This document shows positions 3,778 to 30,783 of a stretch of 40,334 nucleotides of DNA, in pieces (the first letter of the stretch is position 1; the number at the start of each line of letters is the position of its first letter). This DNA comes from Escherichia phage AnnaIndermaur_Bas104. The notes beneath the pieces are model-generated. The model ran no database searches. It was not told where the DNA came from and worked only from the letters and a program-made list of their open reading frames with translations. Location of the stretch: the sequence record PQ850595.1; one strand, written 5' to 3'. The position numbers were made by a program, and so were the translations under genes.

Positions 3778-3801
3778 CTAAAGACCAGCCTAAAGACCAG
3801 C
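3778..3801. repeat. 2 x 12 bp tandem repeat (CTAAAGACCAGC)
   Basis: read directly. Confidence 0.7.
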
Positions 3802-3849
3802 CTAAAGCCTATCCCATAGATGCCTTGTTGTTATCTATAAAGAGATACC

Positions 3850-3888
3850 CTTTAATCATTGTCTTTAATCATTGTCTTTAATCATTGT
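3850..3888. repeat. 3 x 13 bp tandem repeat (CTTTAATCATTGT) abutting phiOL
   Basis: read directly; single copy in T7 as recalled. Confidence 0.85.
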
Positions 3889-3891
3889 CTT

Positions 3892-3914
3892 TAATACGAC
3901 TCACTATAGAGAGA
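3892..3914 (+). promoter_or_regulatory. T7 RNAP promoter phiOL (left-end, secondary origin region)
   Basis: TAATACGACTCACTATAGAGAGA. Confidence 0.75.
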
Positions 3915-3934
3915 CTACTTAAAGAGAACTTAAA

Positions 3935-3953
3935 AGAGAGAGAGAGAGAGAGA
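3935..3953. repeat. (AG)n dinucleotide microsatellite, ~9.5 units
   Basis: agagagagagagagagaga read directly. Confidence 0.85.
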
Positions 3954-3978
3954 AATTAAAGTTTTTAAAAAAAGAGTA

Positions 3979-4007
3979 TTGACTTAAAGAGTCCTAGGGG
4001 TTACTAT
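3979..4007 (+). promoter_or_regulatory. host sigma70 early promoter A1
   Basis: TTGACT -35, 17-bp spacer, TACTAT -10; position and flanks as T7 A1. Confidence 0.75.
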
Positions 4008-4104
4008 TCATCTCGTCAACGGGACAACGGCCCAAAGCCACTCCCTGAGATACCGGAGTCAACCGGATAAGTAGGCAGCCTGTAAGCCATACGAAAAACA
4101 GGTA

Positions 4105-4134
4105 TTGACAACACGCAGTAACATGCAGTAAGAT
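4105..4134 (+). promoter_or_regulatory. host sigma70 early promoter A2
   Basis: TTGACA -35, 18-bp spacer, TAAGAT -10. Confidence 0.75.
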
Positions 4135-4212
4135 ACACAGCGTCAATCGGTAGCACACGGTGTCTTCTAGGTGACTTAAGCGCACCACGGCACATAAGGT
4201 GAAACAAAATGG

Positions 4213-4241
4213 TTGACAACATGCAGTAAACACGGTATGAT
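4213..4241 (+). promoter_or_regulatory. host sigma70 early promoter A3
   Basis: TTGACA -35, 17-bp spacer, TATGAT -10. Confidence 0.75.
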
Positions 4242-4338
4242 GTACCACATGAAACGACAGTGAGTCACCACACTGAAAGGTGATGCGGTCTAACGAAACC
4301 TGACCAAAGACGCTCTTTAACAATCTGGTAAATAGTAG

Positions 4339-4626
4339 GGATAGTGTCGTGATAGGCCAACTAACTTAAGGTAACTATCATGAAGACATTAACGCGAAAA
4401 GATATACTAGAAGCACTCAAAGGTGTAGCGATAGATGCACAATGTGTTCGGGTTAAAGTGTTAGATTATACCAATAATCCGCTTGCCCCTGAAAAAGTAG
4501 CATACAGTATCACATACAAGGAGTTTGGTGTAAGCAGGAAGGTGGTCTACTACCCGAATACTGTAGGTTTTCAATTCGTAAGATAAAGATAGCGCTGGCA
4601 TTAGCCGGCCTATCACGACACTATCC
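4339..4626 (+). mobile_element. 288-bp cassette bounded by perfect 20-bp terminal inverted repeats, carrying one 68-aa ORF; possible TAG flanking duplication
   Basis: GGATAGTGTCGTGATAGGCC at 4339-4358 is the exact reverse complement of GGCCTATCACGACACTATCC at 4607-4626; TAG on both flanks; T7 as recalled has no sequence between GGTAAATAG and CTCTTGAGTGCATGAC. Confidence 0.6.
4380..4586 (+). CDS. hypothetical protein, 68 aa (cargo of the inverted-repeat cassette)
   Basis: intact ORF with ATG and TAA; uses AUA, CUA, AGG, AGA, CGG codons that are rare in the flanking T7-like genes; no recognisable homolog from memory. Confidence 0.55.
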   Translation: MKTLTRKDILEALKGVAIDAQCVRVKVLDYTNNPLAPEKVAYSITYKEFGVSRKVVYYPNTVGFQFVR

Positions 4627-4629
4627 TAG

Positions 4630-4700
4630 CTCTTGAGTGCATGACTAGCGGATAACTCAAGGGTATCGCAAGATGCCCTTTATGATATCCACTAACAACA
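4630..4700 (+). promoter_or_regulatory. RNase III processing hairpin R0.3 (approximate limits)
   Basis: CTCTTGAGTGCATGACTAGCGGATAACTCAAGGG... imperfect hairpin conserved with the T7 R0.3 site. Confidence 0.5.
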
Positions 4701-4717
4701 CTATGAGGTAACACAAG

Positions 4718-5065
4718 ATGGCTATGTTCAACACTACTTACAGCAACGTTTTCGACTACGCTTACGAAATGCTGAAAGAAAACATCCGTTATGATGACAT
4801 CCGCAGAATTGACGACCTGCACGATGCTATTCATATGGCTGCCGATGATGCGGTCCCTCACTACTATAATGACATCTTTAGTGTAATGGCAAGCGATGGC
4901 ATTGATTTTGAATTTGAGGACTCTGGTCTTATGCCGAACACCAAGGACGTAACCCGCATTCTACAGGCTCGCATCTATGAGCAACTCACTAGCGACCTTT
5001 GGGCAGACGCTGAGGACTTACTGAACGAGTACCTTGAGGAAGTCGAGGAAGAGGAAGAAGAGTAA
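4718..5065 (+). CDS. ocr: Ocr anti-restriction protein (T7 gp0.3 homolog), 115 aa
   Basis: [29 protein letters not shown]... matches T7 Ocr; acidic, poly-Glu C-terminus. Confidence 0.9.
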
Positions 5066-5217
5066 TGACTAATAGCACGCAATATGGTCTGACCGCTCAA
5101 ACTGTGCTGTTCTATAGTGACATGGTGCGCTGCGGGTTTGATTGGTCGCTCGCAATGGCACACCTTAAGGAACTGTACGAAAACAACAAGGCAATAGCTT
5201 TGGAATCTGCTGAGTGA
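5065..5217 (+). CDS. 0.4: gp0.4 homolog (FtsZ inhibitor in T7), 50 aa
   Basis: [50 protein letters not shown], near-identical to T7 gp0.4; TAATG overlap with ocr stop. Confidence 0.8.
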   Translation: MTNSTQYGLTAQTVLFYSDMVRCGFDWSLAMAHLKELYENNKAIALESAE

Positions 5218-5279
5218 TAGACTAAAGGTCGCTCCTAGCGAGTGGCCTTTATGATTATCATTCTATGAGGATTAAACGC

Positions 5280-5450
5280 ATGACGACTGGAATCTTTATG
5301 GCAACCGTTGCAGTATTCGTAGCGATGGGATGGCGTAGCACCGCGTTGGAGCGCTCAAAGTTCCTTAAGCAACGTGATGCACTACTAGAGAAGTTTGACT
5401 CTGAGGGGCGCGGTCAGGAAGCTCTGGAGGCAATAAAGTGCTATCGCTAA
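5280..5450 (+). CDS. hypothetical small membrane protein, 56 aa (occupies T7 0.5 position, not homologous)
   Basis: GAGGA RBS 8 nt before ATG at 5280; one predicted TM segment (GIFMATVAVFVAMGW). Confidence 0.5.
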   Translation: MTTGIFMATVAVFVAMGWRSTALERSKFLKQRDALLEKFDSEGRGQEALEAIKCYR

Positions 5451-22255: not shown

Positions 22256-22356
22256 CGTATATTGGTCTTGGTCTTTGTGGTCTCGGAGTGTGCCTCATTT
22301 CGTGGGGCCTTTTGGACTTAGCCAGAATAATCAAGTCGTTACACGACACTAAGTGA
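22243..22356 (+). CDS. 6.3: gp6.3-like small protein, 37 aa, GTG start
   Basis: AAGGAG RBS 8 nt upstream of GTG at 22243; 37 codons as T7 gp6.3; hydrophobic; sequence identity not verified. Confidence 0.5.
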   Translation: METVAYIGLGLCGLGVCLISWGLLDLARIIKSLHDTK

Positions 22357-22376
22357 TAAACTCAAGGTCCCTAAAT

Positions 22377-22399
22377 TAATACGACTCACTATAGGGAGA
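22377..22399 (+). promoter_or_regulatory. T7 RNAP promoter phi6.5 (class III consensus)
   Basis: TAATACGACTCACTATAGGGAGA. Confidence 0.9.
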
Positions 22400-22453
22400 T
22401 AGGGGCCTTTATGATTATTACTTTAAGATTTAACTCTAAGAGGAATCTTTATC

Positions 22454-30703: not shown

Positions 30704-30732
30704 TTAAATGTTCTCCCTGTGGTGGCTCGAAA

Positions 30733-30755
30733 TTAATACGACTCACTATAGGGAG
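30733..30755 (+). promoter_or_regulatory. T7 RNAP promoter phi13 (class III)
   Basis: TAATACGACTCACTATAGGGAGA. Confidence 0.9.
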
Positions 30756-30783
30756 AACAATACGACTACGGGAGGGTTTTCTT

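Follow-up and report, generated by a model that had tools for sequence, protein, structure and literature searches.

The early operon of Escherichia phage AnnaIndermaur_Bas104 (PQ850595.1), a circularly permuted T7-like (Teseptimavirus-type) genome considered here over its whole 40,334 nucleotides (the window), contains a small cistron enclosed between two complementary arms. The question raised by this locus is whether the enclosed segment is a piece of mobile DNA or a unit that acts in RNA. A preliminary description offered both options: a non-autonomous element resembling a miniature inverted-repeat transposable element (MITE) with a passenger gene, or a module excised from the early transcript by RNase III. 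The arms are the two strands of a selected long-range RNA helix in the sense transcript. The unit that they delimit is probably an RNA-level expression cassette, whose cistron would be excised by RNase III, with Nus factors tethered at boxA aiding the folding.

The insert in the T7-type leader

The 5′ arm (GGATAGTGTCGTGATAGGCC, 4339-4358) and the 3′ arm (GGCCTATCACGACACTATCC, 4607-4626) are perfectly complementary over 20 nt, and a repeat finder lengthens them to 26 nt at 92% (4339-4364 and 4601-4626). They form the sole inverted repeat of ≥20 nt with >90% complementarity within 1.2 kb across the 40-kb window, and the 18-mer core of the arm, allowing ≤3 mismatches, has only two sites in the window, which are both arms (0.02 expected). 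Between the arms lie 248 bp with a single sense open reading frame (ORF; 4380-4586) of 68 amino acids (aa); the arm-to-arm unit is 288 bp (4339-4626). A check of the sequence agrees with the preliminary description on the perfect repeat, the coordinates of its arms and the ORF within it.

The isolate genomes examined, T7 (V01146), Bas103 and Yanou, all have an empty site, with GGTAAATAG directly followed by CTCTTGAGTGCATGAC (the latter also written CTCTTGAGTG). Since their leader is uninterrupted at this junction, the insert measures 294 bp (4336-4629), between GGTAAATAG and CTCTTGAG of the T7 leader that runs from A3 to R0.3. The T7 leader given in the preliminary description is thus the correct one, and alignment to these empty sites confirms the indel boundaries. 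TAG borders both arms (4336-4338 and 4627-4629), and another TAG lies at 4333-4335, within AAATAG; from the comparison of empty and filled sites, the left-junction TAG (4336-4338) is the ambiguous 3 bp of the insert.

BLAST with the 1.3-kb region matched 283 phage records. Only Yanou covers >80% of the query, because it carries the ORF at another site; the remaining 282 cover ≤ ~78%, as expected if the 294-bp insert is missing from all of them. The exact 68-aa protein is encoded on at least 24 metagenome contigs, and eight metagenome contigs, each assembled on its own and from different samples, have this very junction. An assembly artefact is ruled out by these independent assemblies and by the presence of the same frame in the sequenced isolates SP6 and K1-5; the cassette is real and inherited.

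Covariation and folding of the arms

Pair counts were made on a gap-free alignment of 30 distinct units, many of them related, in which variation extends over nine stem positions and several phage subfamilies. In the proposed helix 93.9% of cells pair and double-sided changes occur in 17 of the 25 pairs; none of 500 column shuffles reached the observed values, and sliding the 3′ partner by 1-3 columns lowers pairing to 24-42%. Stem position 12 forms a series of U-A (window), U·G (L034) and C-G (L028); position 1 changes from G-C to A-U (L037), position 3 is A-U, C-G or U-A, and position 11 is G-C or U-A. Read in the sense strand, the cells that are not Watson-Crick comprise 48 G·U pairs and 5 mismatches, whereas the same cells read in the antisense strand comprise 2 G·U pairs and 51 mismatches. 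Covariation and this sense-strand asymmetry of G·U pairs identify the arms as a selected RNA helix; a DNA repeat, be it a transposase site or a cruciform, gives no reason for a strand bias. Both lines of evidence favor the second of the options offered earlier, the RNA-duplex module, and speak against a MITE-like element.

Folding gives the same structure. RNAalifold, applied to the 5′ untranslated region (UTR), a linker and the 3′ UTR, recovered the same 20 pairs independently. The minimum free energy (MFE) and centroid structures of 4300-4720 both contain the long-range stem that the preliminary description had envisaged for the early transcript, beside an intact R0.3 hairpin (z = -3.7). The helix has 20 contiguous pairs, a G·U pair and a 4-bp extension, with a duplex interaction energy of about -49 kcal/mol, and offers RNase III double-stranded RNA of about two helical turns or more. 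Repeat finder, folding and covariation together define its leader strand, the 5′ arm (4339-4364, plus strand), as a perfect 20-nt core (4339-4358), a 2x2 internal loop and then 4 pairs (CUAA); the trailer strand is the 3′ arm (4601-4626, plus strand; core 4607-4626).

A common frame around exchangeable genes

With the cassette as the query, BLAST found only Yanou, which has the ORF alone, armless, behind gene 0.4 and R0.5, and Lelliottia phage phD2B, in which both arms enclose a different ORF of 61 aa. Pattern scans and protein-context look-ups also located the frame in IMG/VR contig L005, SP6, K1-5, ULINTec4, PhiM1, Klebsiella phage H01, Cronobacter phage Peggy, an Edwardsiella phage, Enterobacter phage Entb_48, and several T7-like and T3-like metagenome contigs. 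BLAST with an SP6 unit matched 158 phage records, mostly via the frame rather than the ORF. A degenerate arm scan returned SP6 and L042, with L040 and L041 as chance hits; in the viral collection, exact matches to the 18-mer of the arm were limited to phD2B and one IMG/VR contig.

Exact 18-mer matches in metagenome and GTDB sequences (L006-L008) are single and unpaired and were treated as chance. One of these, L008 (JANQMY010000434.1, an alphaproteobacterial metagenome-assembled genome), has the exact 20-mer of the 5′ arm at 890-909, partnerless nearby and with no boxA, a match ascribed to chance because 298 Gb were searched. Copies at different sites, for which the preliminary description had allowed, were found in neither E. 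coli genomes nor plasmids; units were found only in early operons of Autographiviridae.

The anatomy common to 25 units begins with boxA (GCTCTTTAACAA), a 0-3 nt spacer and a 20-nt 5′ arm, the outer part of which is variable and the inner part (KUGAUAGGCU) conserved. There follow (A/U)ACUAAC...AAGGUNACUAUC and AUG, an ORF of 36-81 aa and its stop codon, and then G(A/G)UAG...GCUGGC-N4-GCCAGC, the 3′ arm, and boxA again. At least 15 apparently unrelated ORFs, as judged by inspecting translations by eye, occupy this frame in the 25 units. Units also stand in tandem with shared boxA copies, two in ULINTec4 and three in L038. The frame is annotated in none of the database records examined, and the searchable literature, which did not cover the original SP6 and K1-5 genome papers, yielded no account of long-range stems linked to boxA in phages like T7 or SP6. 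The preliminary description had overlooked boxA, the broad spread of the frame in SP6-like phages and the exchangeable cargo.

Arrays of 2-3 single-ORF units lie at 1683-2269 of ULINTec4 (L046), 1443-2387 of L038 and 2504-3239 of L050. The ULINTec4 units share boxA, with a new boxA after each helix; the later units of L038 and L050 have no adjacent boxA. Several array ORFs are unannotated or called on the wrong strand in GenBank, for example in the Edwardsiella phage.

Coupling to boxA and comparison with known systems

The phage boxA, GCTCTTTAACAA, fits the gamma-proteobacterial consensus GYTCTTTAANA (PMC5725501); the boxA of T7 is a functional antitermination element whose mutation has a phenotype, according to a statement that cites Savalia 2010 (PMC3709561). 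In the window this NusB/NusE binding signal lies at 4312-4323 (plus strand), in the resident T7-type leader and outside the insert. Of 19 units analysed, 18 have a helix that begins 0-3 nt past boxA; the exception is the window's own unit, in which the distance from boxA to the 5′ arm is 15 nt. A generic scan found that 0-3 nt beyond most early-region copies of boxA there lies a 5′ strand whose 18/18 complement is located 195-660 nt downstream. The early operon can therefore be read as a series of units, each made up of boxA, a long-range helix and one or more ORFs. A trailing boxA follows the helix in most canonical units of SP6, K1-5, phD2B, ULINTec4, L005, L018 and L019; it is missing from some terminal units and from the window, where the R0.3 hairpin directly follows.

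Arms of unrelated sequence take part in the same layout. SP6 (L043) has a perfect 30-bp duplex (939-970 with 1490-1521) around genes at 998-1477, and phD2B (L004) a perfect 29-bp duplex (1004-1034 with 1555-1585); these long arm families span about 580 nt and are unrelated in sequence to the window arms.

Further arms of this second family were seen in K1-5 (L045; 723-774 with 1176-1227) and Klebsiella phage H01 (L048; 1104-1143 with 1533-1572). The family as a whole forms perfect or near-perfect duplexes of 29-30 bp, 1-2 nt after boxA, around 2-3 small genes (about 470-660 nt); its sequences vary among phages, each being complementary to its own partner.

The closest likeness in layout is to the leader-trailer units of rRNA operons. 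In rrn, sequences flanking 16S and 23S form leader-trailer helices that are cleaved by RNase III, and each is preceded by its own boxB/boxA/boxC set; according to a current model, boxA with its bound NusB/E keeps the 5′ strand tethered to the polymerase and the product is extruded as a loop, which allows the trailer to pair with that strand as it emerges (PMC10250234, PMC4807359). The phage unit resembles the rrn system (rrnTAC: NusA/B/E/G, SuhB, S4) in that a boxA fitting the consensus immediately precedes the 5′ strand of a long-range helix and the helix brackets the product and covaries with many wobble pairs (PMC10250234, PMC4807359). Host RNA polymerase transcribes both, and canonical phage arrays renew boxA with each unit, just as in rrn a separate boxA serves the 16S and the 23S unit. 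It differs in bracketing a small protein cistron with a Shine-Dalgarno sequence instead of a structural RNA (16S or 23S), in a helix of 20-30 bp versus 25-44 bp, and in a boxA spacing of 0-3 nt versus the 18-19 nt between boxA and boxC in rrn. It also has no boxB or clear boxC and no sequence similarity to the rrn flanks, and its cargo is exchangeable.

The RNase III sites of T7 (R0.3, R0.5, R1, R1.1, R1.3) offer a second comparison. Like the cassette's helix they are intercistronic in the same operon and stand directly before a translation-initiation region (TIR), they share the lower-stem motif GUGAUAG...UAUCAC, and the upstream or excised message would be left with a stable 3′-terminal hairpin. 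At their inner core (GUGAUAGGCU and CUAUCAC) the arms repeat the lower-stem motif of the R0.5 hairpin, and in T7-like phages with the armless 68-aa gene, TIR and ORF start exactly at the 3′ edge of that hairpin. The T7 sites, however, are local hairpins of ~50 nt with an internal loop and are usually cut once, whereas the strands of the cassette lie 248 nt apart with a whole cistron inside, and their uninterrupted 20-bp duplex is expected to be cleaved in each strand; perfect duplexes that span at least two helical turns are textbook substrates for double cleavage (background, PMC6212723).

With lambda-type nut sites (boxA plus boxB) the cassette shares a boxA in a phage early transcript, and hence the recruitment of host Nus factors; unlike them it has no boxB hairpin or N protein, its boxA is reiterated, and this boxA is paired with a long-range helix instead of a small hairpin. 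The unit is functionally akin to an rrn leader-trailer unit and to a T7 RNase III site; its enclosed mRNA and its split, long-range duplex keep it from strict membership of either class.

Proposed mechanism and alternatives

As the early transcript is made by host RNA polymerase, the arms would pair into a helix of about 20-25 bp enclosing one small cistron, the ribosome-binding region that belongs to it and a short 3′ hairpin. NusB/NusE and other Nus factors bound to boxA would keep the 5′ arm at the point where RNA leaves the polymerase, so that the helix could form co-transcriptionally once the 3′ arm emerges. Host RNase III would then cut both strands of the two-turn duplex and free a discrete mRNA of about 0.27 kb, its ends guarded by the residual helix and the 3′ hairpin, and the next boxA would re-arm the polymerase. 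Because the frame is conserved and the enclosed ORF exchangeable, the frame could also serve as homology for shuffling small early genes between phages.

Several points weigh against this account of an excised, boxA-tethered cistron. The related units in the alignment mean that cell counts exceed the number of independent events. The arms have an invariant 7-bp core (GAUAGGC with GCCUAUC) beyond the known needs of RNase III, which could be the site of another protein or reflect recent common ancestry. A local hairpin competes with 3 bp of the helix. In the window boxA is 15 nt away and no boxA follows the unit, so the Nus tether may work less well there and this part of the account is the weaker for it. 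The left junction, AAATAG-TAG-arm, has an extra TAG for which simple recombination at boxA does not account. Finally, the argument for cleavage by RNase III consists of duplex length, context and analogy, and Nus-assisted folding at boxA likewise can only be presumed.

The alternative that fares best, although it is unlikely, is that the helix is real and uncut, and that it shields mRNA ends from RNase E or exonucleases, tunes or insulates translation, or binds a protein that recognizes the core. Covariation demonstrates selection for pairing only, the rrn leader-trailer helix matters independently of RNase III (PMC10250234), and there is a weak conserved pairing between the 4 nt before AUG and GAUA/GGUA after the stop codon, all of which would suit such roles. 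Yet perfect duplexes of 20-30 bp in E. coli transcripts are standard substrates of RNase III (background, PMC6212723), the unit is placed with respect to the TIR just as the canonical R0.5 hairpin is, and the other arm families preserve length and perfection, not the core sequence.

That the arms are simply DNA linker homology for modular recombination, with incidental complementarity and no RNA function, is very improbable. The frame is indeed kept around many ORFs and the same ORF is found in different frames, and T4-like phages shuffle ORFs by means of conserved PeSL motifs (early promoter plus terminator stem-loop; PMC2839356, PMC4122927). PeSL cassettes resemble the units in having short conserved motifs beside small variable ORFs in early or hyperplastic regions (PMC2839356, PMC4122927), motifs that plausibly mediate modular shuffling by recombination. 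However, the PeSL stem-loop is a local hairpin, whereas the cassette has neither promoter nor terminator and its signal is boxA with a long-range helix built from two flanks. Homology for recombination needs no mutual complementarity of the flanks, and the compensatory double changes, the strand asymmetry of G·U pairs and the 0-3 nt spacing to boxA would be left unexplained.

A shade less credible still is a DNA element, namely a MITE-like transposon that is non-autonomous and mobilized in trans, carries a passenger ORF between 20-bp terminal inverted repeats and generates a 3-bp TAG target duplication. Such an element would fit the small size, the terminal inverted repeats without a transposase, the TAG on each flank, the clean empty site in relatives and a left junction that recombination at boxA leaves unexplained. 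However, the TAG/TAG pair is confined to the window lineage; the other 24 units have variable 0-3 nt spacers and no target-site duplication, and are flanked by boxA copies instead. All units are sense-oriented in early operons, with no dispersal and a fixed context, and no copies were found in 5,426 E. coli genomes, 72,556 plasmids and 100,044 species genomes, where the single unpaired 18-mers look like chance. The arms covary instead of staying identical, their differences are G·U in one strand only, the same architecture occurs with unrelated arm sequences, and no transposase candidate was seen. With no constant duplication, no copies at unrelated sites, a fixed sense orientation next to boxA and strand-asymmetric mismatches, a MITE is unsupported; that the insert is not a conventional insertion sequence, as the preliminary description held, is agreed. 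By the tests that define a MITE or a PeSL cassette, the unit is neither. A terminator or attenuator role was rejected, since there is no U-tract.

Wider reading and implications

The expression-cassette reading can be extended from the single unit to the whole operon. In this extension, early operons of Autographiviridae, chiefly SP6/K1-5-like and sporadically T7-like, would be arrays of rrn-mimicking units that fold with a Nus tether and are excised by RNase III, the frame serving as the unit of horizontal exchange for small host-takeover and anti-defence genes. It is put forward tentatively, as a possibility that falls a little short of an even balance.

If it holds, the logic of boxA and leader-trailer pairing, which has been thought dedicated to rRNA, has been copied by phages for protein-coding cistrons, and host rRNA-processing logic has given rise to a natural standard expression cassette for mRNAs. 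The unit would also provide a non-essential system of 300 nt in which to study the debated model that Nus factors anchored at boxA aid the pairing of distant strands. The repetition of boxA in early regions of the SP6/K1-5 type would be accounted for, and the conserved frame would be a route for small early genes between phage subfamilies. In practical terms it would supply an annotation rule for bounding small early genes, of which the records examined mis-call or omit several, and a natural insulator-plus-processing part for phage and synthetic-operon design.

Acquisition of the cassette

The cassette probably entered the T7-like lineage by recombination. Empty sites in relatives, low GC content (41.7% in the cassette versus 48.4% in the window), the armless gene elsewhere in relatives and at least two independent configurations point to acquisition rather than loss; BLAST coverage and composition thus bear out the earlier view of an acquired insert within a T7-type leader. 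The configurations of the 68-aa gene in T7-like contigs differ in arm variants and junctions: in the L019 type, GGCUAG arms go with a duplicated boxA to either side; in the window type, the arms are of the GGAUAG form and a second boxA is missing.

The right junction of the window (CC-TAGCTCTT-GAGTG) is identical over 8 nt to a donor-type flank (CC-TAGCTCTT-TAACAA), which is the start of the downstream boxA in phD2B, ULINTec4 and UAB78; the T7-type recipient reads AAATAGCTCTT-GAGTG. These 8 nt (4627-4634), common to recipient and donor-type flank, are the probable crossover point. The window copy would thus have arisen by recombination into a T7-like leader, with the right crossover in the TAGCTCTT shared with a donor boxA. 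Since the right junction has this homology, recombination through microhomology is favored over target duplication, and the TAG that the preliminary description took for a possible 3-bp duplication is at least partly microhomology. Searches for a donor with TAG directly left of the arm gave 0 hits, and those for an alternative empty site, AAATAGTAGCTCTTG (also AAATAGTAGCTCTT), only 27 chance hits.

Between the armless and the cassette versions of the gene, homology runs from the 3′ edge of the R0.5 hairpin to just past the stop codon, and the module exchanged is therefore TIR plus ORF. The armless gene behind R0.5 was seen in L009-L017 and in Yanou (L001), at about 1440-1700, with the same TIR as that of the cassette.

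HNH endonuclease genes are present in L029, L031 and L032 (positions 1-250), about 1.2-1.4 kb upstream of the cassette and near the genome end. Homing by an HNH endonuclease was rejected as a route of entry, the HNH genes being >1 kb from the cassette and missing from most relatives.

The cargo gene and its flanking signals

The TIR of the cassette, AACUAACUUAAGGUAACUAUC (4359-4379, plus strand), has the Shine-Dalgarno sequence AAGG at 4368-4371 and is common to units with unrelated ORFs and to the armless gene copy behind R0.5 in T7-like phages. The cargo gene (4380-4586, plus strand) is assigned from its ORF and conserved protein homologues. Downstream, a local 6-bp hairpin, GCUGGC-AUUA-GCCGGC (4594-4609, plus strand), stands directly 5′ of the CUAUCA core of the 3′ arm and overlaps the innermost 3 bp of the long helix. 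All 22 units compared contain the hairpin, 3 of them with swapped strands, and RNAalifold recovers part of it.

Judging by its sequence conservation, with the invariant motifs KV.DY..N..APEKVAY and YYPNTVGFQ, the cargo represents a real conserved protein family. It has no Pfam hit, and PHROG gives only phrog_16587, a family of unknown function. Its confident AlphaFold2 model (pLDDT 88) has one helix packed on a four-stranded sheet and no significant PDB match; Vibrio phage ICP1 supplies the sole fold relative, ORF24 (36% identity, TM 0.82), which is itself uncharacterised. From position and size, an early host-interaction protein may be guessed. Remoter sequence homologues were noted on contigs of 90-105 kb (P0009, P0011, P0014).

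Surroundings in the early operon and other features of the window

A promoter scan found three sigma-70 promoter-like sites that correspond to T7 A1, A2 and A3 (3979-4241, plus strand; 9-11 of 12 matches); their first hexamers start at 3979, 4105 and 4213, and V01146 annotates A1-A3 at homologous positions. The early transcript that host RNA polymerase makes from these sites therefore has the cassette as its first cistron. Directly 3′ of it lies the resident T7-type R0.3 RNase III hairpin, which is intact (4630-4706, plus strand), followed by ocr (gene 0.3; ORF at 4718-5065, plus strand), identified by the Pfam ocr family in homologues of relatives. The canonical RNase III sites in the window are at 4630-4706 and 5212-5261, and no Rfam family matched 3800-5400 at E ≤ 1.

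A weak sigma-70-like match at 4317-4345 (TTAACA, 17 nt, GATAGT; 9/12) is composed of the tail of boxA and the start of the 5′ arm, and exists because of the atypical 15-nt spacing in the window. It is the sole candidate for a promoter inside the unit and was judged incidental.

At 3850-3895 of the window a 13-bp unit, CTTTAATCATTGT, is repeated 3-4 times in tandem directly upstream of a T7-class promoter (TAATACGACTCACTATAG, about 3892-3909), the equivalent of phiOL, after which comes a (GA)n run at 3936-3953. A T7-type RNase III-like hairpin at 22355-22432, CCTTTATGATTATTAC, has a phage promoter embedded in its loop, and a phage promoter, CGACTCACTATAGGGAGAACA, also makes up the 3′ arm of an imperfect inverted repeat of 21 nt at 30709-30759.

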